From an uncultured Bacteroidales bacterium (lineage in GTDB: Bacteria; Bacteroidota; Bacteroidia; Bacteroidales; UBA932), in assembly GCA_900319375.1 (NCBI GenBank), contig ONOI01000003.1, positions 783 to 64,782 of the forward strand: DNA of 64,000 bases, read 5' to 3'. The translations under genes and the position numbers were made by a program. Below are positions 3,247 to 53,085 of this stretch, in pieces (the stretch's first letter is position 1; each line of letters begins with the position of its first letter). The notes beneath the pieces were generated by a model. That model was not told the DNA's origin and did not search any database. It worked only from the letters and a program-made list of their open reading frames with translations.

Positions 3247-4539
3247 ATGAAAACCGTATTAGTCATCGGCGGCGGCGGCCGCGAACACGCTATAGTAGAC
3301 GCGCTGAGCCGCAGCCCTCAGGTTGGAAAGATTTATTGCGCCCCGGGTAACGCCGGAATCGGTCTCCAGGCGGAGAATGTCCCGCTCAAAGACACCGACG
3401 TCGAGGGCCTCAAGGCTTTTGCGCTCGATCATGGCGTCGACCTTACCGTAGTCGGCCCCGAGGCTGCGCTCGCGGCCGGGATAGTCGACGCTTTCCGCGC
3501 CGCCGGCCTTAAGATCTTCGGCCACACCCGGGCGGCTACTGCAATCGAGAGCTCGAAGGAATTCGCGAAGCGGCTGATGGCTAAATACAATATCCCTACT
3601 GCGGCCTACCGCAGTTTCTCAGACTACGACGAGGCGCTCTCATACGTCAGCGCCCGCCCGCTGCCGGCAGTTCTCAAATACGACGGACTGGCTGCGGGGA
3701 AGGGAGTGGTCATCGCGTCCGATCTCGAAGAGGCCCGAAAGGCCCTTGCAGACATGCTCCTGGACCATACCTTCGGCCAGGGTAAGGTCGTCGTCGAAGA
3801 CTTCCTCACCGGACCCGAATTCTCCTTCCTTTGCTTCGTGGATGGCGACCGCGTCTACCCGATGCCCCTTTCTCAGGACCACAAACGCGCCTACGACGGC
3901 GACCAGGGCCCCAACACTGGCGGAATGGGCGCATACACCGGCCTGCCTTTCATAACGGCCGAGGACAGGGAGTTCGCCTATATGGAGATAATGTGTAAGG
4001 CGGCCTCTGCGATGGTTTCCGAGGGCTTGCCGCTTTCCGGCGTTTTGTACGGGGGCCTGATGAAGACCCCGCAGGGAATTAAGGTAATCGAGTTCAATGC
4101 CCGTTTCGGGGATCCCGAGACCGAGGTGGTTCTGCCTCTGCTGAAGAGCGATATCTACGTAATCTTCGAAGGAGTTGCTACCGGTAGGGAAGTGTCTGAT
4201 CCGGAGTGGTCGGACGGGGTTACTCTCGGGGTCGTGATGGCTTCGAAGGGCTATCCGGGCTCGTATCAGAAAGGATTTGAGATCGAAGGCCTGGATCTTG
4301 TCGATGCTCAGGTCTATCATATGGGGACCGTCATTCGCGACGGAAAGGTTCTGACAAATGGCGGACGCGTGTTGATGATAGTATGTGGAGGGAAGGATCT
4401 GGCCGCTGCCCGCGCCTGCGTTTATGAGCAGCTTGCAAAGATTCGCTGCGACAATCTTTTCTTTCGAAAAGACATAGCACATCGGGCTTTTTTTAGTACC
4501 TTTGCAGCCCCGAATAAAAATCTGTTAGATAATGTTTAA
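3247..4539 (+). CDS. purD: Phosphoribosylamine--glycine ligase
   Basis: 430 aa; VLVIGGGGREHA, APGNAG, DGLAAGKGV, QDHKR, PNTGGMGAY, EFNARFGDPE, GGRVL. Confidence 0.98.
   Translation: MKTVLVIGGGGREHAIVDALSRSPQVGKIYCAPGNAGIGLQAENVPLKDTDVEGLKAFALDHGVDLTVVGPEAALAAGIVDAFRAAGLKIFGHTRAATAIESSKEFAKRLMAKYNIPTAAYRSFSDYDEALSYVSARPLPAVLKYDGLAAGKGVVIASDLEEARKALADMLLDHTFGQGKVVVEDFLTGPEFSFLCFVDGDRVYPMPLSQDHKRAYDGDQGPNTGGMGAYTGLPFITAEDREFAYMEIMCKAASAMVSEGLPLSGVLYGGLMKTPQGIKVIEFNARFGDPETEVVLPLLKSDIYVIFEGVATGREVSDPEWSDGVTLGVVMASKGYPGSYQKGFEIEGLDLVDAQVYHMGTVIRDGKVLTNGGRVLMIVCGGKDLAAARACVYEQLAKIRCDNLFFRKDIAHRAFFSTFAAPNKNLLDNV
4497..4504 (+). promoter_or_regulatory. Bacteroidota -7 promoter element (TACCTTTG) for the DASS transporter gene, inside the purD 3' end
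   Basis: Exact TAnnTTTG match 27 nt upstream of the ATG at 4532. Confidence 0.55.
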
Positions 4540-6037
4540 AAAATTTGTTGGTTTTAATCTGGTTGAAGAGATGCACAAGTTGCGTCACAACAAAATCTTC
4601 AACCCGCTTAAACTTAAAAAGAAAACTTTCGGCATACTGTTCGTTCTTGCCGTATTCCTTACTTTGTGGTTCCTGCCTACCGAGTCCTTCGGAATGGACG
4701 GACTGACCCTCGTTCAGCAAAGAATCATCGCGATATTCGCATATGCGACCCTTATGTGGGTGTTGGAACTGGTTCCGGCATGGGCGACTTCGGTGTCGAT
4801 TATGGTCTTCCTTCTTCTCTTCACATCCAATTCCGGAGTGAAGTGGCTTTGCAACCCGGATGTCGCCGGACAGCTGCTCAGCTACAAACAGGTGATGGCC
4901 AGCTTTGCAGACCCGGTCGTGATGCTGTTCATAGGCGGATTCGTTCTCGCTATCGCTACGACTAAGACCGGGCTCGATGTACATCTCGCCCGTGTCCTGC
5001 TTTCTCCCTTTGGAAAGAAGAGCGAGAACATCCTTCTCGGATTTATGCTGGTTACGGCTTTGTTCTCGATGTTCATCAGCAACACCGCGACTACCGCTAT
5101 GATGCTTACCTTCCTTACACCGGTCTTCAAGCAGCTCCCGGAAGCTGGAAAGGGCCGCACTGCGATGGCTCTCAGCATCCCTATCGCGGCTAACCTGGGC
5201 GGAATGGGAACCCCTATCGGAACTCCTCCGAACACTATCGCGCTTAAGTATCTCAACGACCCTGAGGGCCTGAATCTCGCTATCGGCTTTGGCCAGTGGA
5301 TGCTGTTCATGGTTCCGCTCGTCATCATCATGATCATCCTTGCCTGGATCCTTCTGAAGAAGGTTTTCCCGTTCACTCAGAAGACCATCGAGCTCAAGAT
5401 CGACGGCGAGATGAAGAAGGGCGCTCAGACTACTATCGTCATCGTCACGATGATCATCACTATCCTCCTCTGGATGACCGACACCCTTACCGGTGTCAAT
5501 ACATACACGGTCGCGCTTATCCCGTTTGCGGTATTCGCGCTTACCGGCATTATTACGAAGTATGACCTCGAAGAGATAAACTGGTCTGTTATCTGGATGG
5601 TCGCCGGCGGTTTCGCCCTCGGCTATGCGATGAACGGATCCGGACTCGCAGCCCTCGTAATCAGGGCCATCCCGTTCGGCCAGTTCTCGCCGGTTCTCAT
5701 CGTCCTGCTCTCCGGCCTTATCTGTTACGTTCTTTCGAACCTCATCTCCCACTCCGCTACCGCGGCTCTTCTGATGCCTATCCTGGTGGTGGTCTGTACG
5801 GCCATGGGCGACAAACTTGCAGCGATCGGAGGCCCGACTACCGTCCTTATCGGTGTCGCTATCGCTTCCAGCAGCGCTATGATCCTCCCGATCTCTACTC
5901 CTCCGAATGCTCTTGCATACGCAACTAACCTGGTCCAGCAGAAGGACATGGCCCGTATGGGAATCACCGTGGGCGTACTGAGTATCGTACTCGGCTATGT
6001 AGTCCTTATCGCTGCCAGGGCTCTCCACATTGTCTAA
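4532..6037 (+). CDS. SLC13/DASS family sodium:dicarboxylate or sulfate symporter
   Basis: 501 aa, highly hydrophobic; SMFISNTATT, ANLGGMGTPIGTPPN and LPISTPPNA motifs. Confidence 0.9.
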   Translation: MFKKFVGFNLVEEMHKLRHNKIFNPLKLKKKTFGILFVLAVFLTLWFLPTESFGMDGLTLVQQRIIAIFAYATLMWVLELVPAWATSVSIMVFLLLFTSNSGVKWLCNPDVAGQLLSYKQVMASFADPVVMLFIGGFVLAIATTKTGLDVHLARVLLSPFGKKSENILLGFMLVTALFSMFISNTATTAMMLTFLTPVFKQLPEAGKGRTAMALSIPIAANLGGMGTPIGTPPNTIALKYLNDPEGLNLAIGFGQWMLFMVPLVIIMIILAWILLKKVFPFTQKTIELKIDGEMKKGAQTTIVIVTMIITILLWMTDTLTGVNTYTVALIPFAVFALTGIITKYDLEEINWSVIWMVAGGFALGYAMNGSGLAALVIRAIPFGQFSPVLIVLLSGLICYVLSNLISHSATAALLMPILVVVCTAMGDKLAAIGGPTTVLIGVAIASSSAMILPISTPPNALAYATNLVQQKDMARMGITVGVLSIVLGYVVLIAARALHIV

Positions 6038-6055
6038 CCTCATAAGAACACTATA

Positions 6056-7651
6056 ATGAAGAAGATACTATTATTTGCAGCCATCGCGCTTTCGCTGGCC
6101 GTCTCCTGCAGGCAGGAACAGAACCCGGTGGAGCGTATGGTAGAGGATTATGCCCTCGTGACTATCCCGGCCCCTGATCTTACCGGTATTACCGACAATG
6201 GTAAGGAAGTCCTCAGGCTTTATCGCCAGGCGGCCGACGAGGTAGATAAGATCTATTGGAAACAGGTCGTTGCCGAAGGCGCAGATTTTACCTCTAATCT
6301 TGAGGATCCCGAGAAGCTTTATGCTGAGATCAACTACGGCCCCTGGGACCGCATTACCGGCAAACCCTTCATAGTCGGCTATGATTACAAGCCCGCCGGA
6401 GCCCGCTTCTATCCGGAAGATCTTTCTGATGATGAGTTCGAAGAGTTCGACGATCCAGACAAGCTCAGCCCTTATACTCTGGTCGTTCGCGACGGCAGTC
6501 AGCTGAAGACTGTCTGGTACCACGATGCATATGCTTCAGAGATTGCTAAGATCGAAGGATATCTGAACCGCGCTGCAGATGTTACCATCAAGCCCAGCGT
6601 GCGCCGTTATCTTCTCGAACTGGTTGAGGCCCTCAAGACAGACAATTATTACGAGAGCGCAAAGGCCTGGCTCGAGATGAACGACAGTAAGATGGATCTC
6701 GTTCTTGGACCTATTGAGGCTCTTGACGATGCCCTTTACGGAACAAAGGCCTCATACGGCGCCTACGTCCTGCTTAAGAACCTCAAGCGTACGGATGAAC
6801 TCAACGCTCTGTCTGCAAGGATGCCTGAGCTCCAGAATATGCTCCCGGGTGATCCTGCCAACCGCAACTTCGTCCCCGGTGCCGAGTCCGATATCTTCTC
6901 CTGCAACGTTCTTTACTGCAGCGGCTACACCAATGCCGGCTACAAGGTAATCGGAATCAATTTCCCTTACGATGCAAAGGTCCAGGAGGAACTCGGAACC
7001 CGTACCATCATTTTCGACAACATCATCCGCGAGAAATTTAACCGTACCGTATTCCCGGTCGGCAAGTTCCTCCTCGAGGATGCCGAGCAGCCCCATGTCG
7101 ACGGCAGCGCCTTCTACTGGCTGATCGTCTTCCGCGAGATCGCCAAAGGACTTGGTGTAAAGGAAACCATCAACGGAAGGGGAACAGTTGCCGAGGCCCT
7201 TGGAAATGAGGCTCTCGCGATCGAGAAAGCTAAGTCAAATGTTCTTGGAACCTGGCTCTGCGCCCTCGAAGCCGAGGCTTATCATATCAGCGCTATCTTC
7301 CAGAAAGAGGATGTTCTGGCGACCTTCGTTGCCAACACTATCCGTTCCGCCAGATTCGGCGCCGCGGATCCTACCGGTGTTGCCAACATCCTGGTCTACA
7401 ACTACCTGCTCCAGAACAAGGCTATCATCTTCAATTCTTCAGCCGGCAGGTACAGCATAGACTACGAGAAGACTTGGAGTGCGCTCGAAACTCTTGGCGC
7501 AGAGATCCTCAGGATCCAGGCTACAGGAGATATCGATGCCGCCAGGGCTTGTATCGAGAAATACGGAATCGACGGCCTTGAGAGCCAGTCCGACCGCCGC
7601 GTCCTCGCCCGCGCGAATATCCCTGTAGATATCCGCTTCTGCTACGAATAA
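6056..7651 (+). CDS. Peptidase M49 (DPP III)-like lipoprotein with degenerate zinc motif
   Basis: Lipobox LAVSC; NYGPWDR, GA.FYP.D, SPYTLV, KMDLVLGPIE, INFPYD, FDNII resemble the Bacteroidota M49/Nudix-like family. The expected HExxH site reads REIAK. Confidence 0.72.
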   Translation: MKKILLFAAIALSLAVSCRQEQNPVERMVEDYALVTIPAPDLTGITDNGKEVLRLYRQAADEVDKIYWKQVVAEGADFTSNLEDPEKLYAEINYGPWDRITGKPFIVGYDYKPAGARFYPEDLSDDEFEEFDDPDKLSPYTLVVRDGSQLKTVWYHDAYASEIAKIEGYLNRAADVTIKPSVRRYLLELVEALKTDNYYESAKAWLEMNDSKMDLVLGPIEALDDALYGTKASYGAYVLLKNLKRTDELNALSARMPELQNMLPGDPANRNFVPGAESDIFSCNVLYCSGYTNAGYKVIGINFPYDAKVQEELGTRTIIFDNIIREKFNRTVFPVGKFLLEDAEQPHVDGSAFYWLIVFREIAKGLGVKETINGRGTVAEALGNEALAIEKAKSNVLGTWLCALEAEAYHISAIFQKEDVLATFVANTIRSARFGAADPTGVANILVYNYLLQNKAIIFNSSAGRYSIDYEKTWSALETLGAEILRIQATGDIDAARACIEKYGIDGLESQSDRRVLARANIPVDIRFCYE

Positions 7652-7709
7652 TTTATTTCGCAGATATCCAGACAAGAGCGTCCTCGTTCAATAGGCAGAG
7701 ATTAGTCGT

Positions 7710-9467
7710 ATGAAGCGAACGTTACTCCTTGCGCTGGCTGCTATTCTCGCCTTTTCCTGCGAGGAGAAACAGCCCATACCGGATCCAGAACCCACTCCTA
7801 CCCCGACCCCTCAGCCCGGACCGGACAAGCCGCTGGCGGGAGAGTATGTTCTGCCGCTCGTCGAAACGACTGATACACACGGATATATAGTCAACAATGA
7901 CAACGGGACAATCCACTACCGTCTGGCGTATATAGCGGACAAGATCAACGATATCCGGGGCCATGGCGCCGAGTGTGATCGCGACCGGCTCTTGCTGCTT
8001 GACGGCGGCGATATCTACCAGGGTGCGAGCGTGTCGAACCTCCAGGGCGGTGTGCCGCTGTTCGTGGCCTACGACAGGATGGGCTATGACGCGGTTGCCG
8101 TCGGGAACCACGAATTCGACTGGGGGATCACGACCGTCATCGACGCGGATGCGACGCTGCCCGATTACGAATGGGAGGGAACAGCCTGCGTCAGCGAAGT
8201 GCCCGTCTTATGCTCGAACCTCTATCAGAACGGCAGCCGCGTCCCTTTTACCAAGGACTATGCGATTATCCGTAAAACGGCGATGAATTCCGAAGGAGAG
8301 AAGGTTGAGGTCAAGATCGGGGTCATCGGTTTCGCCCCCAACTACGCGAGCAGCATTATGACAACGAAGTTCACGGGAGCGGGCTACTCTCTTCGGGAGG
8401 ACTACTCGATTCCGCGCAATATTGCCGCCGAGCTTGAATCCACGGGCCAGTGTGACGCGACAATTCTGCTGACCCACGATTCGGCGAACGATGCCGCGGA
8501 TAATCTGGGCAGCAACAGCGTCATCGACCTCGTACTCGGCGGCCACTCACACCGCACAATGAGCGGCAGTACATCGTGGGGCCTTCCATATCTGCAGGGC
8601 GGCCGCTATGCCGAGCATTTCGGCTATGCGGAGCTGCGCTTCTCCGTTGACACGACCGGGGCGGTTTCATTCCTCTCCGTGGAAAAAATGCGGACGGAAA
8701 CGGTGAACTCTGATCGCGATGTGTGTTCGCGGGCAGGGCAGAATGCCTCCGACCTGGACGAGGATATCCTGGCGGTATCGAAGAGAGCCGTTGAGATAAG
8801 CGCGGCGCAGCTGGAGGATGTTATCGGCTATATCGATGTAGGGGCTACCAGCTATCGTTTGGCAGGTAGTGGTGAACGGTGTTCTGCGATAGGCAACTGG
8901 ATGTGTGATATAATGAGGCGCATAGGCGATGCGGATGTCTCTTTTGTCAATGGGGGAGGGATCCGCACTTCGTTCCCGCTATACGGTTCCAGCAGGGATA
9001 TTACCGTAGCGAATGTCTACGAGATGTTCCCGTTCTCGAATGCCATCTATGTCTATAAGCTTACATACGCGGATCTTCTCAAGGTATTCGAATACTCTTT
9101 GACAAGTGGAGGAAAGAGTCTCTTTACCGGTATGACGGGCCTTGACTGTCACTTTTATTCGGACGGCGAGATCCATTCTCTGCGTCTCTGGGACGGAACG
9201 GTTATCTACAGCGGCGGAAAATGGACTGGAGACTGGGCTTCGCGTAATGTCATTCTTGCGGTAAGCGAGTTTCTGGCTACTTCCGAGCGTACGGACTATT
9301 CTACAGGTACGCCCAACCCTCTTGTAGAATGGAACAGTACTTCAAGGCTGCTCTACAACAATCTGGTTGATAATGAGAATGCCGTTCTCGTTCTGCGCGA
9401 AGAGGCTGTAGCTTCCGGAGGACTCCTCAAGGTGGATGATACCGCTCATTTCATTGTGATGGATTGA
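7710..9467 (+). CDS. 5'-nucleotidase / 2',3'-cyclic phosphodiesterase family lipoprotein
   Basis: Lipobox AFSC and PT/PE linker; DTHG, GDIYQG, GNHEFD, LLTH, GGHSH metallophosphoesterase motifs; C-terminal IGNWMCD, NGGGIR, MFPF.N. Confidence 0.9.
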   Translation: MKRTLLLALAAILAFSCEEKQPIPDPEPTPTPTPQPGPDKPLAGEYVLPLVETTDTHGYIVNNDNGTIHYRLAYIADKINDIRGHGAECDRDRLLLLDGGDIYQGASVSNLQGGVPLFVAYDRMGYDAVAVGNHEFDWGITTVIDADATLPDYEWEGTACVSEVPVLCSNLYQNGSRVPFTKDYAIIRKTAMNSEGEKVEVKIGVIGFAPNYASSIMTTKFTGAGYSLREDYSIPRNIAAELESTGQCDATILLTHDSANDAADNLGSNSVIDLVLGGHSHRTMSGSTSWGLPYLQGGRYAEHFGYAELRFSVDTTGAVSFLSVEKMRTETVNSDRDVCSRAGQNASDLDEDILAVSKRAVEISAAQLEDVIGYIDVGATSYRLAGSGERCSAIGNWMCDIMRRIGDADVSFVNGGGIRTSFPLYGSSRDITVANVYEMFPFSNAIYVYKLTYADLLKVFEYSLTSGGKSLFTGMTGLDCHFYSDGEIHSLRLWDGTVIYSGGKWTGDWASRNVILAVSEFLATSERTDYSTGTPNPLVEWNSTSRLLYNNLVDNENAVLVLREEAVASGGLLKVDDTAHFIVMD

Positions 9468-42372: not shown

Positions 42373-45156
42373 ATGGAAGAGAAGATAATAATCCGGAACG
42401 CGACCGTCAACAACCTTAAACACGTGTCGGTAGAGATCCCGCGAGACAAGATCGTGGTGATTACCGGCGTGTCCGGATCCGGAAAGTCTTCTCTTGCTTT
42501 TGATACTCTTTTCGCAGAAGGACAAAGGCGCTTTGCCCAGAGCCTCTCGTCGTATGCCCGCCAGTTCCTCGGCAGGATGAACAAGCCCGATGTCGAATCG
42601 ATCGACGGCGTTCCTCCAGCAATCGCAATTGAGCAGAAGGTGACTGTCAAAAACCCTCGCTCAACAGTTGCAACTACAACCGAGATTTACGATTTCCTTC
42701 GCCTCGTTTTCGCAAGAATAGGAAAGACCTACAGCCCCATTTCCGGCGGCCTGGTCCATTCAGATTCCGTAGCGGATGTTCTCAAATACCTTGACGGCGC
42801 CCAGGGAACGGTAATGATACTTGCCCCGATAAAGTGGGGCGAAGACTGGGTCTCGACCCTGCTCGGACTTAAAGAAGAGGGTTTCAGCCGCCTCTACGTA
42901 GGCGGAAAGCCCGTGAAAATAGACGAAACGCTCCAGGGCGGGCAGCAGCCGGAAGGCGCAAAGTTGCTCGTAGACCGTTTCAGCGACCGCTCCGACCGCG
43001 CGAGGCTCATCTCCTCGCTGGGAGACGCATTCAAGGCCGGCGACGGCGCCATGTCCGTCATTACTGAGGAGGGCGAGCGCGAGTTCTCCGACCGTTTCGA
43101 ACTGGACGGCATCAAGTTCCGCCAGCCGGATGAGTTCCTCTTCAGTTTCAACAGCCCCCTCGGGGCATGCCCGGTCTGCGGCGGTCTTGGAAAGATAATC
43201 GGAATCAGCGAGGACCTGGTAATCCCGGATAAGACAAAAAGCATCTACGACGGAGCAATAGCCTGCTGGCGCGGCGAGAAGATGGCCTGGTTCAAGGACC
43301 ACATGGTCGAGGTCTCGGCTAAGTACGGTCTGGATATCTTTACCCCGTATATCAAGCTGGACGAGCGCTCGAAGCGTCTTATATGGGAAGGCGATCCGCC
43401 CGCACCAGGAGACTCTTACGACTCCAATCCAGAGCGCCTGATCGGCCTTAATGAATTCTTCGACTGGGTTGAGACCCAGCGCTACAAGATACAGTACAAG
43501 TATATGCTCAGCCGCTTCAGCGGCAAGACTATCTGCCACGCATGCCACGGCAGCCGCCTTCGCCCGGAAGCCCTCTATGTCAAGGTGGCCGGCAAAACAA
43601 TCCACGACCTCCTGTCGATGACAGTTGAGGAGAGCATAGCCTTCTTCCAGACGATAGACCTTAGCCCCGAAGACCGCGAGGTAGTAAACGAGCCCCTGTT
43701 CGAAGTCCTCAGCCGCCTGCAGTGTCTGGAGGATGTAGGACTGGGCTACCTTACCCTCAGCCGCGCGATGAACACCCTTTCGGGTGGAGAGAGCCAGAGG
43801 GTGAACCTCGTTACCGCCCTCGGCAGTTCGCTCGTCGGCTCCATGTACATCCTCGACGAGCCCTCGATCGGCCTACATCCGCGCGACACCGAACGCCTTA
43901 TCGGCGTACTTAAGCGCCTCCGCGACCTCGGCAACACGGTCATAGTCGTCGAACACGACGAGGAGATAATCCGCGCCGCGGACGTCCTTATCGACATGGG
44001 ACCGTTTGCCGGCTCGCGCGGAGGCGAGATAGTCTTCGAAGGCCGGTACTCCGACTCCCTGCCTGAGGAAAAGTTCTCACGGTCGCTTACCCTGCAATAC
44101 CTGAGCGGCCGTAAGACCCGCTATGTCAGGGAGAAACGTCCATGGACCTACAGCATCACGGTCCAGGGCGCGATGGAGCATAACCTGAAGACGATAGATG
44201 TCCGGATCCCGCTGGGCGTCCTTACCGTAGTCAGCGGCGTGTCCGGTTCGGGAAAGTCGACCCTCGTTGGCGATATCTTCTATCCAGCCCTCTACCGCCA
44301 CATAAACGAAGCAGGCGATCCGCCCGGGGCGTTCAAGGGCCTTACGGGCAACCTCGACCGCATTACGCGCGTAGAATACGTAGACCAGAACCCGATAGGG
44401 AAGAGCTCCCGCTCGAATCCCGTAACATACCTGAAGGTCTACGACCTTATCCGCAAGCTCCTTTCCGACCAGCAGTACGCCAAAGTAAGCGGCTTCGGCC
44501 CTTCGTTCTTCTCGTTCAACCAGGAAGGAGGCCGCTGCCCGGAGTGTCAGGGAGAGGGCGTAGTGACTATCGAGATGCAGTTTATGTCGGATGTAAAGAT
44601 GGTCTGCGAGTCCTGCGGAGGAAAGCGTTTCAAACCCGAGATACTAGAGGTGCGCTACCGCGGAAAGAATGTAGACGATATCCTGAATATGAGCGTGTCC
44701 GAGGCAATTGAGTTCTTCTCAGAAGGGCCTGAACCGGAGGCTAAGGAGATAGCTCAGAAACTTCAGCCGCTGGTAGACGTAGGTCTCGAATATCTTAAAC
44801 TGGCCCAGAGTTCGTCTACCCTTTCCGGAGGCGAGAGCCAGCGTATCAAACTGGCCTACTTCCTTGCGATGAGCCGCGAAAAGAGCGGACGCGAAAAGAT
44901 AATGTTCATCTTCGACGAGCCTACTACCGGACTTCATTTCAGCGATGTGGAACGCCTTCTGAAGGCTTTCGACGCCCTTTTGGAGCGCGGCCACAGCGTG
45001 CTTGTCGTAGAACACAATACGGATGTCATCAAGGCGGCGGACTGGGTAATAGACCTCGGTCCTGATGCCGGAGACCGCGGAGGCGAAGTAGTCTTCGCAG
45101 GAACTCCAGAAGACCTTGCAAAAACAGACACCTATACAGCAAAGTATATAAAATGA
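42373..45156 (+). CDS. uvrA: Excinuclease ABC subunit A
   Basis: Two ABC modules ([25 protein letters not shown]), zinc fingers, [15 protein letters not shown]. Confidence 0.97.
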
Positions 45157-45956
45157 TAGATGCAGTTATCACTTACGTAAACGGGTCGGACCCGGAGTGG
45201 AAGAAGCAGTATGCTGCGGTAGCGGGAAAAGAGCCTTCAAGGCGTTACCGCGACTGGGGAATGCTGGAGTGGCAGGTTGGCAATATCCGCCGTTTCCTTC
45301 CCTTTATAGACAAGATATTCCTTGTCGTAGCCCTTCCTTCCCAGGTTCCCGCAGGACTTGAAGACAAGGTCGAGGTAGTCCTCCACAAAGACTTCATCCC
45401 GGAGCAGTATCTGCCTACCTTCAACTGCAATACTATCGAGATGTACCTTTACAGGATAAAGGGTATGAGCGATAAGTATCTGTATATCAACGACGACTGT
45501 ATCCCGGTCGCCCCGGGAAGCGAAGACGAGTTCTTTGTCGGGGACAAGATCTGCAGGGGCTTTGCCAAGCACCTTTTCTATCCCAATATGTTCAAGAAGA
45601 TAGTCCGAAAGACGGATAGGGTAGCCCGTAAGGCGGCAGGTCTTTCGCCATGTCCTATCTTTATCCGTCCCCAGCATTCTCCTTCGCCTCAGGTAAAGTC
45701 TGTAGGAGAGGAAATAATGAGTAAGGTAGAAGGGGATTTACTCTCATCGCTGAGTACATTCAGAAGGGAGTACAATGTCTGCAACTACGTCCTTCCGGAT
45801 TATATGTATCATACAGGAAAGGTGATACTTCAGGCCCAATTGGACGCTTTTCTCCAGAATCCTGACCGTAAGTGGATTTGTATCAATGATGTGGATATGA
45901 CTCCGGCCCGCGAGGAAGAATTCCGCAAGGTTATCGCCAAATACGCCTCCAAATGA
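45153..45956 (+). CDS. Stealth family hexose-1-phosphate transferase
   Basis: CR1 [15 protein letters not shown]; CR2 RYRDWG, H.DFIP..YLPTFN..TIE, YLYINDD. Confidence 0.9.
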   Translation: MIDAVITYVNGSDPEWKKQYAAVAGKEPSRRYRDWGMLEWQVGNIRRFLPFIDKIFLVVALPSQVPAGLEDKVEVVLHKDFIPEQYLPTFNCNTIEMYLYRIKGMSDKYLYINDDCIPVAPGSEDEFFVGDKICRGFAKHLFYPNMFKKIVRKTDRVARKAAGLSPCPIFIRPQHSPSPQVKSVGEEIMSKVEGDLLSSLSTFRREYNVCNYVLPDYMYHTGKVILQAQLDAFLQNPDRKWICINDVDMTPAREEEFRKVIAKYASK

Positions 45957-46789
45957 CAACCGTAAGTCTGATAGTTCCTATCTATAAGGTTGAGAAATAT
46001 ATAGAGCAGTGCGCCCGCAGTGTTCTGGGCCAGAGCTGGCCTTCGATTCAGTTCATATTTGTAGACGACTGCAGCCCGGACAGCAGCATCGATATCCTCG
46101 AGTCTCTGATCGAGCGCGAGTTCGCCTCTCTCAAGGACCGTATCCAGATCATACGTAAGCCCGTGAACGAAGGTCTGCCCCAGGCCCGCAAGAGCGGCAT
46201 CGCGGCAGCGACCGGGGATTACATTCTCCATGTCGACGCGGACGACTGGATCGAGCCTGACGCCGTCGAAAAGCTGGCCCTCAAGGCCGGGGAGACGGGG
46301 GCGGACGTGGTCTATTTCTTCGCCTGGAAGGAGTTCGGAGACGGCCGTTCGAGGGTGATTACAGACAAGGAGTTCGCGACCCCGCAGGATTTTGCGGATG
46401 CCGTCCTGGTCCACGACGCACACCCGAGCGTGGTCCTGAAATTCTGGCGGCGTACGCTCTTCAGCCCGGAGATTTTCTTCCCGCGCTATGGCCAGGCCGA
46501 GGACATGGTCCAGAGCCTGCAGCTGCTCGACCGTGCGAAGAAGGCAGTCCGGCTGCCCGAGCCGCTGTATCACTATCGCCGTTCGGATTCGGACGCGATG
46601 AGCCGCGGGAAACGCGCCCGCAAGAAGTCCCACCAGCTGCGCAACTACCTCGATCTCTACCGCTTCTACCGCGACTCGATCGAGACTTCGCCCATACGCC
46701 GCACGTGGCGTAAGATACTGCGCAAGGCCCGCCTGTGGGCCCTGCTCTACGATCGCAGCGCGATCAAGGATTATCCGGAATTGTTTTAG
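45953..46789 (+). CDS. Glycosyltransferase family 2
   Basis: SLIVPIYKVE.YIEQC, VDDCSPD, N.GL..AR..G, HVDADD, ED. Confidence 0.95.
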   Translation: MTTVSLIVPIYKVEKYIEQCARSVLGQSWPSIQFIFVDDCSPDSSIDILESLIEREFASLKDRIQIIRKPVNEGLPQARKSGIAAATGDYILHVDADDWIEPDAVEKLALKAGETGADVVYFFAWKEFGDGRSRVITDKEFATPQDFADAVLVHDAHPSVVLKFWRRTLFSPEIFFPRYGQAEDMVQSLQLLDRAKKAVRLPEPLYHYRRSDSDAMSRGKRARKKSHQLRNYLDLYRFYRDSIETSPIRRTWRKILRKARLWALLYDRSAIKDYPELF

Positions 46790-47559
46790 AGGGCCCAGAC
46801 CTCGCCCCCATGTCCGCCGCGTTCGCTGACTGGCGGGGGAGTCATGTAGTCCGGCCCATACATCTGCGTCAGATACGAGTCCGTGTCCTCGGGGGCTGGG
46901 AACAGACGGCCGCGCAGGCTCAGCGGCTTGAGGTGGTCGAAAAAGTCTTTGGGGTGGACATTGCGCGCCGATTTGCTGCCCATGAGGATAGCGATGCGCG
47001 AGCAGTCTTCGGCCTTATAGCTGCGGGCGAGGCGGTCGCAACGCCCGAGCCACCAGTCGAGGCTGTGGAAATGGGAATCGAGAAGGAGAAGCGGGGATCC
47101 GGTCTTGCGGCTGCGGTAGAGCAGACGTCTGTGGGCATGGATGCTCTTCCTTACGAGGGAGTTGAATGCTGCCTCGTCGTCGGGAACGGGGTCGAGAGGG
47201 AAGATGTCGACGCTTACGCCGTAGTGTGAGATATACTTGCTGCGGCTGGCTACAAACTTGTCCGTTGCCGGGTCGTGGACCTTGGCTACTCCGGCGACGT
47301 AGAAAACGTCCTTTCTGCGGGTGTTGAGTATACACTCGTATTTTCCTTTGTATGTAGCTACGAAACGGTCGAAATCTTCGCGCGGCATTACTATGTCTGC
47401 ATCATCGTCCCAGGGGATGAAGTCTCCGTAGCGGACTGCGCCGAGGACTGTCCCGTAGCCCATCGACCAGCGAAGGCCTTCCTTACGGCAGAAATCGTCT
47501 ATGTCGCAGAGTATAGAAAAGAGTATATCGTGGACCTCGTCTATTCCTATCTGTCTCAT
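46786..47559 (-). CDS. LicD family phosphotransferase (copy A)
   Basis: YGTVLGAVRYGDFIPWDDDADIVMPREDF, VDIFPLD, YLTQMYG.DYMTPPP. Confidence 0.93.
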   Translation of the reverse strand: MRQIGIDEVHDILFSILCDIDDFCRKEGLRWSMGYGTVLGAVRYGDFIPWDDDADIVMPREDFDRFVATYKGKYECILNTRRKDVFYVAGVAKVHDPATDKFVASRSKYISHYGVSVDIFPLDPVPDDEAAFNSLVRKSIHAHRRLLYRSRKTGSPLLLLDSHFHSLDWWLGRCDRLARSYKAEDCSRIAILMGSKSARNVHPKDFFDHLKPLSLRGRLFPAPEDTDSYLTQMYGPDYMTPPPVSERGGHGGEVWAL

Positions 47560-48230
47560 TGTACGGTCTTTACAGCAAGTTTTTCCGGCCTTTCAACATT
47601 GCCCGACACTCCGGGGCGGGGGTAGACGAAGGTAGGGTCCGGGGTGCGCCAGTCAAGTCCATAGCGGGCTACTACGAAACCCTCGGCGCTCTTCGTAACA
47701 GGAATCTCAATCCCGTCGAAGGGCATCATCTCGGTTTCTTTCGAGAACGGGACCTCGAACTCTACTACCCTCAGTCCTCCGTAGAGTTTGTTGGACTCGC
47801 GGTAGTTGGCAGTTCCCTTGAAGGGATAGAACATATAGCCTTTGCAGCGTTCGCCTTCTATAGTATCGAAGAAGAAGATGTCTACGTGGAGCCCATGCCA
47901 TTTCCATGTCTCCTCGCGCGCGAACTGTCCGCCGTCGACCAGAAGGGAGTGGGCATAGGTAAAGCCGGCCTCTTCGAGGCAGCGGTGGAGGTTTTCGAGC
48001 CCGCCCGGGATGGCGTCGTTCCATACGCCGGTATCGATGTCGTCGTCGTGGGGGATGAAGCCCTTTTCGCGGATGGCCCCGAGCAGGGTCCCATATACGG
48101 GCGACCATGGAATTCCGGCCTTTTTCATAGCATCCCTGAAGGCTATCATCGCCGGGAGGCCGTAGCGCTTACGGCGCCTGATGCGGCGGGGATTGGAGTA
48201 GATTTTCTTCCAGAATTGGGAAAGTGTCAT
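47556..48230 (-). CDS. LicD family phosphotransferase (copy B)
   Basis: Likely ATG at 48230 (ATGA overlap); GTLLGAIREKGFIPHDDDID, VDIFFF, RYG.DW.TP. Confidence 0.88.
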   Translation of the reverse strand: MTLSQFWKKIYSNPRRIRRRKRYGLPAMIAFRDAMKKAGIPWSPVYGTLLGAIREKGFIPHDDDIDTGVWNDAIPGGLENLHRCLEEAGFTYAHSLLVDGGQFAREETWKWHGLHVDIFFFDTIEGERCKGYMFYPFKGTANYRESNKLYGGLRVVEFEVPFSKETEMMPFDGIEIPVTKSAEGFVVARYGLDWRTPDPTFVYPRPGVSGNVERPEKLAVKTVQ

Positions 48231-49780
48231 TTCGAGTAGTATTTTGCCATTTCGAGCCAATTTCCGAGGCTTTCGCCTACGGTAGCTCCGCAAGATTCGC
48301 GGTACAGGGCCCAAACGAACCAGTACCAGGCGATGAGTGCCGTGTAGATAAGATAATGTTCTTCGAGAACCGGTGTCCAGCTTTCTTTCAGGTACTCGCG
48401 TATGAAGGCCTTGGCCTTGGTGCGATCGTACATGGCGTCGACTATGTAGTATCCTACGTCGATTCCCGGATCGGAGCAGCCCGAATACTCCCAGTCTATA
48501 AGGATAACGCTGCCGTCAGGACGGAACATCCAGTTGTGGCGGTAGGTGTCGCCATGGCAGAAACATGGACCGACTCCGTCGCCAAGCGTCTTTTCGTAGA
48601 GACGGCCGATGCGCTCTTTAAGTTCCAGATAGGGAGCGAAGCAGCCGGGAGCTTTCTCTTCCAGCATCTTCTCTATCTCCAGCGAGTCTTCCCAGGGCTT
48701 GAGACCCCAGTCGAGTTTTACAGGTGAGGAGTGAAGTTCCCTAAGAACAGCCAGAACCTTCGATGAATCCTCGTCTGAAGCATAATCCGGCTCGCGGAAT
48801 TCAGGTACATACCAGCTGATCTTCCAGCCCTCGCGCTCGTCGAGGTAGATATAGGTAGGGTCTATGCCCAGTTCTTTCGCCTTTTCGAGCGAACGTTTTT
48901 CATGAGTTCGGTCAATGATTTTCTCCGTTCCGTCGCCGGGGTGGCGGTAGATGTAGTCCTTGCCATCTACCCTGAAGATAAATGATGTGTTGGTAAGTCC
49001 TTCGCTTATCTTTCGGAAATCGGTAATATCGGCATCTGAGCAGCTGAAAACGCTCTTGATATTATCTATAATCCGGCTGCGGGAGTCGGCTATGTAGTCG
49101 CTGTCGAAGGCACGCAGTTCTTCGAAGAAGTCGAATTCGAAAATCTTGCCCTGAGGGTACTGCTTGAAGTAGAAGGGGGGAAGTACCTGGAGATAATCCC
49201 TGACCAGCCACTCCCAGTAAGACTGACTGTATTTTCCTTCCTTGTCTGATTTCGCTGCAAGGATGAACTTGCGGGCGAATTCGGCTGTCCAGAAGGAATG
49301 TCCGAGAAGGATCTTGCCTCTCTTGCGGCCTTTTTCCATCCGGGTTATACGTCCGGAGTGGTCTACGCTTACGAACATCTCTTTCGATGCGAAATCCACT
49401 TCTTCTCCTGCGTAGAAACTGTGTTCTTCTTCAGTGTTGAAGGGGTTCTCGGTAAAGTAATCGTCGCAGGAACAGATGTAGGCGTCTTCAAGATAGTCGG
49501 CCGCGCAGAGCAGGCTATCTATATTGTTGGTTATGTTGTAACGCGGATTGTCCACCAGTCTTACCCCGTATTTTTCGCTCAGGTATGAGAACATCTCCTT
49601 TTTGTAGCCGAGAACAACTGTAATATCGTCTATCCCGGCTTCCTTGAGCTGTTCTATCTGCCTGTCTATAAGTCGCTGTCCGCCAACCGAAAACAGACCT
49701 TTCGGCTGCTCGAGCGAGAGGGGAACGAAGCGGGTGGCCGCTCCGGCTGCGAGGATGACTGCGTGGCGTACTTTTGTCAT
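48227..49780 (-). CDS. Fused NTP-transferase (LicC-like) / choline-ethanolamine kinase-like (LicA-like) protein
   Basis: N-term AVILAAG.ATRFVPLS...PKGL; C-term GLTN.SF, CHGD....N, LIDWEYSG. Confidence 0.9.
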   Translation of the reverse strand: MTKVRHAVILAAGAATRFVPLSLEQPKGLFSVGGQRLIDRQIEQLKEAGIDDITVVLGYKKEMFSYLSEKYGVRLVDNPRYNITNNIDSLLCAADYLEDAYICSCDDYFTENPFNTEEEHSFYAGEEVDFASKEMFVSVDHSGRITRMEKGRKRGKILLGHSFWTAEFARKFILAAKSDKEGKYSQSYWEWLVRDYLQVLPPFYFKQYPQGKIFEFDFFEELRAFDSDYIADSRSRIIDNIKSVFSCSDADITDFRKISEGLTNTSFIFRVDGKDYIYRHPGDGTEKIIDRTHEKRSLEKAKELGIDPTYIYLDEREGWKISWYVPEFREPDYASDEDSSKVLAVLRELHSSPVKLDWGLKPWEDSLEIEKMLEEKAPGCFAPYLELKERIGRLYEKTLGDGVGPCFCHGDTYRHNWMFRPDGSVILIDWEYSGCSDPGIDVGYYIVDAMYDRTKAKAFIREYLKESWTPVLEEHYLIYTALIAWYWFVWALYRESCGATVGESLGNWLEMAKYYSK

Positions 49781-49783
49781 CTG

Positions 49784-51349
49784 TTAGAACCTGTTTTTCG
49801 ATCCAAGACCGCGGAAGACGGCTTTGAGTACTCCTTCCCGGGCGCTTTCGTAAGGCTTCCCTTCGAGGATGAGCTGCTCTACCTTAAGATCTTTTATCTC
49901 ACTGGCAGGAATCTCGTATGGGTTGGCGCTGAGGATTACCATATCCGCAATCTTGCCCTTTTCGAGCGAGCCGCGCTCCTTTTCGTCGAAGCTGATGAAG
50001 TAGCCGTTGTAGGTAGCCATCCTGATGGCCTGCTGGATACTGACGCGCTCCTTTTCGTTGGGGTTGTTGACACATTTGTCTATCCACACGATGGGGTCGG
50101 GAGAGGTGCATGGAGCATCCGAACCGAGGCCTACTACGATTCCGTTGCCCACAAAGGTCTTGATAGGGTTGAGGCGCGAGCAGCGCTCTTTTCCCATCAG
50201 ACTTTCGAGATACTCGTCGGGTTCCTGCTTCCACTCTATGAATGCGCTCTGGACGGGCATTGCGATATTGTATTCGCTGCAGATCTTGATTCCTTCTTCG
50301 GTAGGGAGGCAGTCGTGGATAATTCCGTGGCGGTGGTCCTTGCGGGGGAAGTCGTCGAGGGCGGCCTTGAGGCACCGGGTCGCCTGATCGAAAGCCTTGT
50401 CGCCGATGGCGTGCATTTCGATCTGGAGCCCGGCGCGGTTCGCCGCCTTGCAGAATTCGGTAACCGTCTCGTCCGAGTAATAGAGGACTCCGTCGGTTCC
50501 GTCGGTATAAGGCTCGTTCATGGCGGCATCGCCGGAGCCGAAGCAGCCGTCCAGCGCACACTTGAAGCAACCGCCGATACGGGGCAGCTTGCGCGATTTA
50601 GCGACCTTGATCTCCATCGACTGCGGGAATACGCGGACCTGGAAGCCGTTCTTGAGGCTCTTGGCAAAGATCTTTTCGGTAGTAATATCGAGATCTCCGA
50701 TGAAACCTACTCCGCTGACGGTATGGACCATTCCGATACCGCGCTCGGCCTGGAAGTCTGCCGCCTGCTGCATCTTGGAGAAAAGGTCCACGATGCTGAG
50801 GCTGCCGGTGATGTAGTCGGATACCTTGAAGAAGGCTTCCTGGTTCATCTCGCCGGTATCCGGGTGATAACCGCGCAGGGTATTTACCTGTTTGTCTATT
50901 TTCTGAAGCAGTTTGCTGTTGACGATGCAGGCATGGCCGTCGTACTTGACTACCATTATCTCCTTGTCCGGACAGACCTTGTCCAGTTCCTCGCGGCTGA
51001 TGAGCCTGCGCTCCTTTACCGAATAAGGAGAGGCGCCGAATGCGATAAGGGTCTTGGCGTTGCCGCTCTTCTTGTAGAATTCGGCGACCATCTTCGAGAT
51101 TTCCTCGTTGGACTCCGCATCCATCACATTGAGTCCTGCATTGAAGATGGAGAACGACGCAAAATGTTGATGGGTATCCACAAAAGAGGGGATGAGGGCC
51201 TTGCTGCCCAGATCTACGGCCTCAGCGCCGGCGTACTCCTTGGGGAGAGTCTTGCCTACATAGATTATGCGTCCGCCGTCTTCGACCAGATACTTTGCTA
51301 CAGTGTCCTTGGAGTCCACTGTAAGGATAGCGCCTTTATAAACTTTCAT
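49784..51349 (-). CDS. Amidohydrolase-3 (YtcJ-like) metallohydrolase
   Basis: P.FVDTHQH, K..LDG.FGS..AAM..PY, HAIGD.A, RH.IIH, GSDAP, GSLE.GK.AD.VIL. Confidence 0.9.
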   Translation of the reverse strand: MKVYKGAILTVDSKDTVAKYLVEDGGRIIYVGKTLPKEYAGAEAVDLGSKALIPSFVDTHQHFASFSIFNAGLNVMDAESNEEISKMVAEFYKKSGNAKTLIAFGASPYSVKERRLISREELDKVCPDKEIMVVKYDGHACIVNSKLLQKIDKQVNTLRGYHPDTGEMNQEAFFKVSDYITGSLSIVDLFSKMQQAADFQAERGIGMVHTVSGVGFIGDLDITTEKIFAKSLKNGFQVRVFPQSMEIKVAKSRKLPRIGGCFKCALDGCFGSGDAAMNEPYTDGTDGVLYYSDETVTEFCKAANRAGLQIEMHAIGDKAFDQATRCLKAALDDFPRKDHRHGIIHDCLPTEEGIKICSEYNIAMPVQSAFIEWKQEPDEYLESLMGKERCSRLNPIKTFVGNGIVVGLGSDAPCTSPDPIVWIDKCVNNPNEKERVSIQQAIRMATYNGYFISFDEKERGSLEKGKIADMVILSANPYEIPASEIKDLKVEQLILEGKPYESAREGVLKAVFRGLGSKNRF

Positions 51350-52059
51350 TGCTTGTAGTTTTTGTATGAAGGGTCAATCGCGCAGAGTTCCTGGAAGGAA
51401 TCAATCTCCACTATATCGCCCTTCTGGCATTCGTGTATCTTAACTTTATAATTGTCTTTTCTGAGAACCAGAGGTACGAACTCATAGAAAACGTCTCTGC
51501 CGCCTTCTTCGTTCCATACACTCTCGATATCCCTGCGCAGTTTGTCGCAGTCTTCCGGGGTCCAATAGGAGATACCGTAGCAGTTGTAGCACTCCTCTCC
51601 TCCCTTGCGGTAGTTGGTCGCATAGCCGTCCTTCTCGCTCAGACACCAGTCATCGGTCTGCCTGGCGAAAGAGCCGAGGTAATCCGAGCCGGAGTGCCAT
51701 TTCCTGATGACGTCGGGATTTGCGATAAGCAGGTCTGCCTCGCAGATGTAGATGCCGCCTTCAATGAGGTCCAGGGCTGCATGGGCGGAAGAGATGCTGT
51801 TGGTCTTATCGAAAAGATCGTTGTCTATGAACTTGATGTCCGGGTATTTTTCGAGGAGTTCGTCGAAACACTCCTTTTTGTAACCGCGGACTATCGTAAT
51901 GTCTTCGATTCCGGCATCCTGCAGGGCGTCGATAATAGTATCGATGATTCTTACTCCGTTTACCCTTACGAGAGGCTTGGGCCTTTCGAGCGTTACGGGA
52001 ACCATCCTGGAACCGAATCCTGCCGCGAGTATTATAGCTTTTTCTGCGCTGTAAGTCAT
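51346..52059 (-). CDS. Stand-alone LicC-like cytidylyltransferase (NTP-transferase)
   Basis: Likely ATG at 52059 (ATGA overlap); AIILAAGFGSRMVP....PKPL, RGYKKE, EIDS. Confidence 0.88.
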   Translation of the reverse strand: MTYSAEKAIILAAGFGSRMVPVTLERPKPLVRVNGVRIIDTIIDALQDAGIEDITIVRGYKKECFDELLEKYPDIKFIDNDLFDKTNSISSAHAALDLIEGGIYICEADLLIANPDVIRKWHSGSDYLGSFARQTDDWCLSEKDGYATNYRKGGEECYNCYGISYWTPEDCDKLRRDIESVWNEEGGRDVFYEFVPLVLRKDNYKVKIHECQKGDIVEIDSFQELCAIDPSYKNYKQ

Positions 52060-53054
52060 ATAAGTTTCATGCCCCAGCCGTAGACCTTGTCTATGACCGG
52101 AGTCTCTAAATTGTTCTTTTCCGCCAGTTCCTTGATCCACCTGAGCCCGAAGGGGAAGTCTTCGGTAAAATAGCGGCTGGCGCGATCCAGCTTCCAGCCT
52201 CCCTCGCAGGGTATCATCGGGCTGGTGATATTCTGGAAAGCGGCTATCGAGGATATTTTGCGTGTAAGCGAGGGGGCATCATTGCTCTCGTAATACTCCA
52301 GGAGGGTAGGGATGCCTTTAACCTCGAGTTTATCCAGGAGAGTGAAGAACTCCTTATCCATCTCAATAAGAGTCTGGGAAGCCTCGTCAGTCCACTCCTT
52401 GTAAAAGAGGATGTTGTGGTCGAAGACCTCGTCTTCCCGGCCGCAAAACATTGAGTAAAGCCTGCCGGTATGAAGAATGGGATTGGAGTTGGTCAGGGAG
52501 ACCTGGAGATAATTATCTGCAAGGACTACCGGAGTTCCGAAGAGTTCTCCCAGAGTCTTGGTGAACTCTGCAGGAAGGTTTTCGAGCGCTGCAATCAGGT
52601 TGTTCTTATAGCCAAGAAGAAGGGCTTTCGAACCATATTCCGCGACCCTTGCTATGTACGGAACTCTTTGGAAACCAAATAGTTTCGCGCCGTGGCTGAG
52701 TATTTCGTGGGCAAAGAAGAAAAAGCCGGTGCTTGAGACTACCGAGCCTACCGCGGCTTCTCCTATGAATGGCTTGATCGTTTTGAGGGTCTTTTCAATC
52801 AGATAACCGGGAACGCAAAGAAGTACTATATCGCTGCCTTTGACGGTTTTGGAAGGATCTGATGAGACTGAGTCAAGTTTTCCCGAGTAAACCTTTCCGT
52901 CCGGGTCTGTAACCTCGAGACTGTCACTCCATTTCTCGGGATGTCCGGAAAGGATTCTGACGCTTACTCCGGGAAGAGAAGAAAGGACGCCTGCGCATAC
53001 GTGGCCCAGTGAGCCCCCGCCGCAGATGGTGATGTGAGTGTTAAGTCCTCGCAT
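52056..53054 (-). CDS. NAD(P)-dependent opine (octopine/nopaline) dehydrogenase family protein
   Basis: Rossmann motif ICGGGSLGH; RVPYIAR, L..SNPILH..R, FY..W, SRYFTEDFPFGL. Confidence 0.82.
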   Translation of the reverse strand: MRGLNTHITICGGGSLGHVCAGVLSSLPGVSVRILSGHPEKWSDSLEVTDPDGKVYSGKLDSVSSDPSKTVKGSDIVLLCVPGYLIEKTLKTIKPFIGEAAVGSVVSSTGFFFFAHEILSHGAKLFGFQRVPYIARVAEYGSKALLLGYKNNLIAALENLPAEFTKTLGELFGTPVVLADNYLQVSLTNSNPILHTGRLYSMFCGREDEVFDHNILFYKEWTDEASQTLIEMDKEFFTLLDKLEVKGIPTLLEYYESNDAPSLTRKISSIAAFQNITSPMIPCEGGWKLDRASRYFTEDFPFGLRWIKELAEKNNLETPVIDKVYGWGMKLI

Positions 53055-53077
53055 TATTTTTCTCAAGGTGTAACTTA

Positions 53078-53085
53078 CAAATGTA
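53078..53085 (-). promoter_or_regulatory. -7 element (TACATTTG) for the opine/lic operon
   Basis: Exact TAnnTTTG match on the minus strand, 23 nt before the likely ATG at 53054. Confidence 0.6.

Follow-up and report, generated by a model that had tools for sequence, protein, structure and literature searches.

An opine-dehydrogenase-family gene at the head of a Lic-type operon in an uncultured Bacteroidales bacterium: a candidate route to an acidic phospho head group

What is an enzyme of the opine dehydrogenase family doing as the first product of an operon whose other genes recall phosphocholine decoration? In the Lic pathway the kinase LicA, the CTP:phosphocholine cytidylyltransferase LicC and the transferase LicD place phosphocholine on surface structures, and head groups of this type, when carried by bacterial glycans, act as strong ligands for lectins and the immune system, with a biosynthesis regarded as well understood. 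The question is raised by a 64,000-nucleotide stretch of an uncultured Bacteroidales genome (assembly GCA_900319375.1, contig ONOI01000003.1, positions 783 to 64,782; here the window), in which six minus-strand genes at 46786-53054 combine the two kinds of enzyme. The answer tentatively favored below, at somewhat less than an even chance, is that the operon encodes a Lic-type head-group pathway complete in itself, is expressed, and has gained an opine-forming step whose chemistry we infer; its product is probably an acidic surface-glycan head group that is new. The idea is a plausible one that now has comparative and residue-level support, and as a variant of the Lic-type decoration pathway it would be new. 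As given by the open reading frame (ORF) listing and by Pfam and NCBIfam scans of the window, the operon and the element in front of it comprise:

53078-53085, minus strand: TAcaTTTG, a promoter-like element of the Bacteroidota -7 type, in the 43-nt gap 5' of the dehydrogenase gene
52056-53054, minus strand: opine-dehydrogenase-family enzyme, 332 amino acids (PF02317 Octopine_DH, 2.7e-32)
51346-52059, minus strand: LicC1, a stand-alone LicC-like cytidylyltransferase, 237 amino acids (PF12804 NTP_transf_3 / PF00483 NTP_transferase)
49784-51349, minus strand: Amidohydro_3 (YtcJ-like) metal hydrolase, 521 amino acids (PF07969, 1.7e-55)
48227-49780, minus strand: LicCA, a LicC-LicA fusion of cytidylyltransferase and choline/ethanolamine-type kinase, 517 amino acids (PF12804, PF01636 APH / PF01633 Choline_kinase)
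47556-48230, minus strand: LicD_a, a divergent LicD-family phosphotransferase, 224 amino acids (PF04991, 1.4e-10, N-terminal half only)
46786-47559, minus strand: LicD_b, a full-length LicD-family phosphotransferase, 257 amino acids (PF04991, 3.5e-35)

The order of genes is that read by the initial annotation, made from the letters alone, and the Pfam domains agree with it. So does the direct reading of the junctions with its description of ATGA overlaps or a 3-nt gap behind a TAnnTTTG element: four junctions (dehydrogenase/LicC1, LicC1/amidohydrolase, LicCA/LicD_a and LicD_a/LicD_b) are ATGA overlaps, and that between amidohydrolase and LicCA is a gap of 3 nt (TAA CAG ATG). Its span of 45153-53085 does hold the six genes, with the qualification that the operon itself begins only at 46786 and that two plus-strand genes, which it leaves unmentioned, also lie inside. 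TAcaTTTG stands 23 nt before the dehydrogenase ATG. Since TAnnTTTG occurs in the window no more often than by chance (23 sites, 18.8 expected), only the position of this one is meaningful. The six-gene operon is expressed. In rumen metatranscriptomes, contigs at 95-100% identity from four RNA runs together span the six genes, at low depth, with the reservation that DNA may be present in RNA libraries and that contig depth is a poor gauge of expression. Each of the five junctions is crossed by a contig (51763-52275, 50898-51409, 49645-49861, 47877-48320 and 47318-47635), and those nearest the 5' end of the operon stop at 53051-53055; the contigs fit a single transcript from the proposed promoter.

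By sequence and by model the first product looks like a structurally typical, catalytically intact member of the opine dehydrogenase family. Its score against PF02317 is 112.3 bits (gathering cut-off 30), the N-terminal Rossmann GxGxxG motif is present and invariant (GGGSLG, residues 12-17), and the HMMER alignment with the octopine dehydrogenase of Pecten, 3c7a, is full length (7e-25, residues 11-334). The AlphaFold model (predicted local distance difference test, pLDDT, 82.5; predicted template modeling score, pTM, 0.81) has the two-domain opine dehydrogenase fold and is matched by Foldseek to 3iqd/3c7a at 8e-29 with a template modeling (TM) score of 0.79. Foldseek ranks 1 to 13 are all opine dehydrogenases (octopine, CENDH, yersinopine, staphylopine and pseudopaline enzymes), and 2-oxo-acid reductases such as the ketopantoate and D-mandelate reductases come only after them. 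The fold, domain order, His-Asp dyad and Arg sensor are those of the known enzymes (Pecten octopine dehydrogenase 3c7a, Arthrobacter CENDH 1bg6 and the staphylopine, pseudopaline and yersinopine dehydrogenases), whereas identity to them is only 12-25%, and the role proposed here, glycan head-group synthesis, differs from theirs in anaerobic redox balance, metallophore synthesis or opine catabolism. That the enzyme would reductively condense an amine with a 2-oxo acid is suggested by family and context. Tauropine dehydrogenase, which condenses 2-aminoethanesulfonate with pyruvate, is pertinent, that reaction being a near-isostere of the one proposed with phosphoethanolamine.

Comparison with octopine dehydrogenase, which has a His-Asp relay, an NADH sensor in Arg324, and Glu142 and Trp278 as binders of the cationic guanidinium of arginine or agmatine (PMC2924402), is instructive on where the two agree and where they part. 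His212, Asp329 and Arg324 correspond to H195, D299 and R294, all 100% conserved among the 98 dehydrogenase proteins from the loci compared below. (A reading of Arg324 as binder of the pyruvate carboxylate was dropped, since the same paper gives it as the NADH sensor.) By contrast, Glu142 aligns with Q129, which is followed by R130, and Trp278 aligns with T250. Q129-R130 is invariant in the dehydrogenase set, as is R198, one helical turn past the catalytic His; all 98 locus homologues share R130 and R198, which are kept in 96-98% of 126 distant cluster representatives. Such a switch from acidic to basic at the amine head-group site would fit a pocket for an anionic group, for instance phosphate.

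This large family counts 4425 proteins at E<=1e-5, with 269 clusters at half identity at E<=1e-30. Names retrieved for 20 low-GC cluster representatives were Marinifilaceae, Carboxylicivirga, Treponema and Bacteroidales, with no Streptococcus among them. A scan of species genomes yielded 173 relatives, of which 80 loci were kept, nearly all from rumen or gut Bacteroidales and including the cultured Xylanibacter ruminicola KHT3 (locus L051) and Bacteroides sp. 224 (L072); tblastn with the window proteins and the neighbor of the L051 dehydrogenase distinguishes two cassette types among 94 related loci. In 75 of the 94 a pyridoxal phosphate (PLP) domain is encoded a few bases 5' of the dehydrogenase, often overlapping it, and in 70 it is fused to a LicC-like nucleotidyltransferase (NTase), the resulting neighbor being a protein of ~605 amino acids that joins the NTase to a PLP domain of class I/II. 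In 55 of the 94 loci a LicD gene is no more than 5 kb away. The window dehydrogenase is 45-67% identical to those of the cassettes, and its nesting among them in the tree described below makes them orthologous. In a Firmicutes clade (35-38% identical) the NTase-PLP fusion adjoins the dehydrogenase in all five sampled loci, and the transferase partner is LicD in three, a CDP (cytidine diphosphate)-alcohol phosphatidyltransferase in one and TagF-like in one. Fused forms of the dehydrogenase also exist, with LicD on either side, with a TagD-like cytidylyltransferase and, in one case, with an Asp/Glu racemase. One expectation of the initial annotation, that the opine gene would be kept beside lic-type genes elsewhere, is thus borne out by cytidylyltransferase and LicD neighbors in many genomes. 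(More distant homologues of Paraburkholderia and rhizobial plasmids, 27-34% identical, are in unrelated contexts.) A labeling curiosity is L054 (CAVGQS010000001.1), assigned to Lactococcus garvieae and carrying a Bacteroidales-type cassette: the loci of its genome group (1.7-4.4 Mb) are identical to those of Prevotella/Bacteroidaceae. A wrong label or a mis-binned genome is the probable explanation.

For the PLP domain the closest matches are CobD threonine-phosphate decarboxylase (TIGR01140, below cut-off) and PDB 6oux, a 'threonine phosphate decarboxylase-like enzyme', which we take to be the serine-phosphate decarboxylase SMUL_1544 that makes ethanolamine phosphate. There is precedent for the fusion. 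FrbH of FR-900098 biosynthesis is likewise an NTase-PLP protein, acting on a CMP (cytidine monophosphate)-linked amino-phosphonate, and the Treponema protein Tde1415 (PntC-AEPT, PDB 6pd1) is another; chemistry like that of FrbH would give the sister cassette a CDP- or CMP-linked primary amine. We know of no NTase-PLP system described so far that adds an opine dehydrogenase. No NTase-PLP fusion is present in the operon or in the whole 1.9-Mb assembly (94% complete), and where the PLP domain would be the window has its kinase and amidohydrolase.

It is at this point that a different view of the dehydrogenase has to be considered, namely that it is a plain carbonyl reductase making a hydroxy head group (glycerol from dihydroxyacetone, or a hydroxy-acid phosphate) that would then be phosphorylated, CDP-activated and transferred, in a relative of the polyol-phosphate pathways. 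In 2010 Wang et al. reportedly described in J Bacteriol a pneumococcal CDP-2-glycerol route of this kind, involving Gtp1, Gtp3 and Gtp2 together with WchX. The annotations of one 23F genome name gtp1 a 'putative glycerol-2-phosphate dehydrogenase', gtp2 a 'nucleotidyl transferase', gtp3 a 'phosphotransferase' and wchX a 'glycerol phosphotransferase' (PMC3493582), and, by annotation names only, the window would have the same four kinds of activity and the same purpose, to furnish a polysaccharide with a phospho-alcohol side group. The pneumococcal route yields glycerol-2-phosphate, and the window operon has in addition a second LicD, a second NTase and an amidohydrolase. Secondary matches of the dehydrogenases to the N-terminal domain of glycerol-3-phosphate dehydrogenase point the same way, as do the position of the 2-oxo-acid reductases as next structural neighbors after the opine enzymes and the occurrence of TagF-like and CDP-alcohol transferases with the Firmicutes cassette. 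Against this, all 13 of the nearest solved structures are of amine-condensing enzymes, and the invariant Gln-Arg at the amine head-group site, with R198, suggests a charged second substrate. Nor did the open literature yield a tie of the octopine/nopaline/opine dehydrogenase family to LicD, or to a cytidylyltransferase and polysaccharide; 'nopaline dehydrogenase' does not figure in the top-ranked streptococcal capsule literature. Most telling is that a simple ketone reductase leaves the decarboxylase-like PLP domain, present as a fusion or next door in 75 of the 94 loci, with no role; because this part of the common cassette is left idle, ketone reduction is ranked below N-carboxyalkylation of an amine and is considered unlikely.

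The arrangement of the window itself is shared by only 8 of the 94 loci. In a maximum-likelihood tree the window dehydrogenase and seven relatives form one clade (support 100/97) nested among loci of the PLP type, and two further kinase-type cases, L010 and L106, stand separately. A search with the amidohydrolase, followed by reading of context, turned up three more loci in which the dehydrogenase has LicC1, amidohydrolase and LicCA as neighbors: L106, with a dehydrogenase-LicD fusion, and L111 and L112, which occupy the same island between nqrF and uvrA as does the window operon. In all, the block LicC1-amidohydrolase-LicCA is conserved in L002-L008, L010, L106, L111 and L112. Given the nesting, the same dehydrogenase is apparently supplied in some loci by an enzyme resembling phospho-amino-acid decarboxylases and in others by a kinase, and the simplest product common to both that fits is an amino-alcohol phosphate, whose free primary amine would suit N-carboxyalkylation by an opine dehydrogenase. 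Two individual loci deserve mention. A composite at L016:8188-11094 has, in this order, an NTase-PLP fusion, a dehydrogenase and, at the contig end, the start of a LicC1 orthologue (84% identity), and may be intermediate between the two cassette types. In the metagenomic relative L112 (L112:6291-7004) LicC1 is split into ORFs of 61 and 145 amino acids, through either a frameshift or an assembly error, with dehydrogenase, amidohydrolase, LicCA and both LicDs intact.

How far the remaining enzymes follow the canonical pathway is also relevant. The N-terminal half of LicCA matches pneumococcal LicC (1jyk) over full length at 1.5e-36, and residues 240-503 match the S. pneumoniae LicA choline kinase (4r77) at 1.5e-33, with PF01636 at 1.2e-15 and PF01633 at 1e-08; a LicC-LicA fusion is known in Treponema. 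LicC1, also full length against 1jyk, reaches 2.2e-20 and is 36% identical to the LicC half of LicCA. LicD_a is of the type that elsewhere usually comes after the dehydrogenase, and is 35-51% identical to the LicD directly 3' of the dehydrogenase in L011, L021, L057 and L079. In the assembly, LicC- and LicA-type genes are found in this operon only, and LicCA is the sole kinase of its type. The kinase, cytidylyltransferase, LicD and CDP-alcohol logic, all in a single operon, are as in the Lic pathway of S. pneumoniae and Haemophilus. The differences are that the operon adds a translationally coupled opine-dehydrogenase-family first gene, an Amidohydro_3 gene and a second LicC paralogue, and that there is no LicB, as had been noted at the outset: Pfam and NCBIfam show no transporter domain among the six products or those of the flanking genes. 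From these differences it follows that the head group is probably not choline, or not choline only. The best solved-structure matches of the amidohydrolase are to uncharacterized proteins (3icj), and orthologues 75% identical to it also occur elsewhere, alone or beside a glycerophosphodiester phosphodiesterase (GDPD) gene; in L104:7001-10269 and in L105 such an orthologue accompanies GDPD and a 268-amino-acid protein of no assigned function, with no lic genes. The association with GDPD hints at scavenging of head groups or lipids.

Should LicCA and LicD, then, be seen as making ordinary phosphocholine or phosphoethanolamine, with dehydrogenase, LicC1 and amidohydrolase serving supply, salvage or an unrelated second decoration? 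In the salvage version the hydrolase might deacylate an amide and the dehydrogenase, working oxidatively, split an opine-like compound of the diet, freeing an amino alcohol. The closeness of both LicCA halves to their pneumococcal counterparts is in favor of this view, as with LicD they are enough for the known pathway. Opine dehydrogenases are reversible, the GDPD-associated amidohydrolase orthologue looks scavenging-like, and L112, with LicC1 split and the rest of the operon intact, can be counted on the same side. However, the dehydrogenase is tied to CDP-head-group enzymes in ~90 loci that have neither the kinase nor an obvious need for salvage, in several lineages it is physically fused to LicD or to a cytidylyltransferase, and dehydrogenase, LicC1, amidohydrolase and LicCA are together in every window-type locus seen. 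In addition, free-standing canonical Lic is uncommon in the order, with no LicCA homologue in 400 other Bacteroidales genomes. An operon confined to plain head groups is accordingly judged improbable. In a less exclusive version, with two cytidylyltransferases, two LicDs and a canonical-looking LicCA, the operon may make two head groups, plain phosphocholine or phosphoethanolamine being installed as well.

N-carboxyalkylation of phosphoethanolamine, or of its CDP form, best accommodates the two supply routes together with the fold, the retention of the catalytic residues and the basic character of the head-group pocket, and is a reading offered with confidence that stops a little short of even. 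A free amino alcohol, most simply ethanolamine, would be the starting point, possibly released from an N-acylated precursor by the YtcJ-like amidohydrolase, and would be phosphorylated by the LicA-like kinase domain. The opine-dehydrogenase-family enzyme would then, with NAD(P)H, join the primary amine to a 2-oxo acid, for which pyruvate is the simplest guess, to give an N-(1-carboxyalkyl)-aminoalcohol phosphate. A LicC-type cytidylyltransferase would make the CDP-activated form (the dehydrogenase could take as substrate either the phosphate ester itself or its CDP-linked counterpart), and LicD_a, LicD_b or both would transfer the phospho head group to its acceptor, a surface glycan or glycolipid that the adjacent Stealth-family and GT2 proteins considered below may build. 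The initial annotation had already proposed that the operon makes its own head group. Gene content, coupling, opine dehydrogenase family and lic association were observed as it described them, and are now joined by transcription, fold and conservation of the gene association across loci, while amine, oxo acid and order of steps are matters that we infer.

Several considerations weigh against this pathway. The conserved catalytic residues are hallmarks of the family and do not by themselves prove use of an amine. LicCA is much closer than LicC1 to the choline-specific enzymes of the pneumococcus, and choline, having no primary amine, cannot be a substrate of an opine dehydrogenase. Two NTases and two LicDs suggest parallel pathways, and the kinase may not feed the dehydrogenase. 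Release of an amine from an N-acylated precursor is a guess as to the role of the amidohydrolase, whose orthologues are also met away from lic genes. In the sister cassette the PLP domain, falling under the CobD cut-off, could be a transaminase, and the TagF-like and CDP-alcohol transferases used by the Firmicutes version would also suit a polyol phosphate. All substrates and products named here are predictions. A further point of this type, concerning Proteus, follows.

N-[(R)-1-carboxyethyl]ethanolamine phosphate is a component of the O-polysaccharide of Proteus mirabilis (PMC9630907), and the substituent named by the initial annotation is therefore real. Its suggestion of looking for genetic co-occurrence in the Proteus O-antigen clusters led to no such link: no O-antigen cluster with the dehydrogenase was found in the one Proteus chromosome reached. 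The only matches in Proteus are 25% identical and lie in a siderophore-type cluster with IucA/IucC, a TonB receptor, a decarboxylase, PALP and MFS genes. (The record in question, L097, NZ_OL790811.1 of Proteus mirabilis H63, is a 4.08-Mb entry in the plasmid database PLSDB that is evidently the chromosome, and this is its sole gene of the opine dehydrogenase family.) A homologue in a siderophore cluster neither helps nor hurts N-carboxyalkylation in the window. A paper on the Proteus O-antigen clusters has no mention of genes for the N-(1-carboxyethyl)ethanolamine phosphate substituent, and no described gene for N-carboxyethyl-ethanolamine phosphate was found. A broader proposition, put forward with a shade more reserve than that for the window pathway, is that the large dehydrogenase clade of rumen and gut Bacteroidales and of Clostridia consists of phosphoethanolamine (or CDP-ethanolamine):2-oxo-acid reductive N-carboxyalkylases, which would be the missing step for N-(1-carboxyethyl)ethanolamine phosphate.

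If this is correct, an opine-forming step within a Lic pathway would be new opine dehydrogenase enzymology with a phosphorylated amine as substrate, and would explain the biosynthesis of N-carboxyethyl-ethanolamine phosphate, a substituent long known chemically. Many rumen and gut anaerobes would carry on their surface glycans an uncharted epitope that is acidic and phosphocholine-like, and the window would illustrate that the step can be fed by scavenging, through amidohydrolase and LicA-type kinase, as well as by a de novo decarboxylase route. The hypothesis is directly testable, the enzymes being soluble and cultured carriers of the sister cassette being in existence.

Where the head group would be put is a separate matter, on which the genes that converge on the operon from its 3' side have a bearing:

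45153-45956, plus strand: Stealth-family (hexose-1-phosphate transferase-like) protein (Stealth_CR2 3e-23, CR1 3.2e-07), coupled by ATGA to uvrA and to the GT2 gene
45953-46789, plus strand: GT2 glycosyltransferase (PF00535, 2.5e-33), convergent with the operon, the stop codons overlapping

The GT2 protein, whose gene is syntenic in L003-L008, L111 and L112, is a possible builder of the acceptor glycan. One possibility, compatible with any view of the head group, is that the acceptor is instead a membrane lipid or glycolipid, so that an unusual phospholipid or glycoglycerolipid head group would result, as with Mf1 of Mycoplasma fermentans or the LicCA route of Treponema. The best NCBIfam match of both LicDs is in fact to the diacylglycerol cholinephosphotransferase Mf1 (GGPL_Ptran_Mf1), under its cut-off, genes for a flippase, polymerase or initiating transferase are absent from the small nqrF-uvrA island, and one Firmicutes cassette has an enzyme of the CDP-alcohol phosphatidyltransferase family. 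Yet most related cassettes belong to polysaccharide loci that include Wzx, Wzy and glycosyltransferases, the operon here has Stealth and GT2 genes at its flank, and a third LicD of the same genome is inside a locus with a flippase, GT2 and TagF-like genes; a lipid acceptor is thus regarded as having a rather slim chance. The third LicD (259 amino acids) is at 4241-8561 of another contig of the genome, C39, between a flippase-like ORF and ORFs that by eye are TagF-like and GT2. Since the only LicC-type cytidylyltransferases of the genome are in the window operon, the C39 locus may depend on it for CDP donors.

The source genome is a metagenome-assembled one of 1.9 Mb, 94% complete, and several studies of bovine and sheep gut metagenomes contain near-identical DNA. 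Among the 400 other Bacteroidales genomes with no LicCA homologue are three of the same genus (G309, G572 and G674), which makes the nqrF-uvrA island a rare accessory trait, variable within the genus. On its 5' side the operon is bordered by a hypothetical gene, whose product, from a reading of the translation by eye, has a lipobox-like N-terminal sequence, and by nqrF. On the other side (window 42373-46789, plus strand) uvrA, Stealth and GT2 genes are joined by ATGA overlaps, an apparent translational coupling of a DNA-repair gene to two glycan genes, and the same three genes also flank the operon in the relatives L003-L007 and L112.

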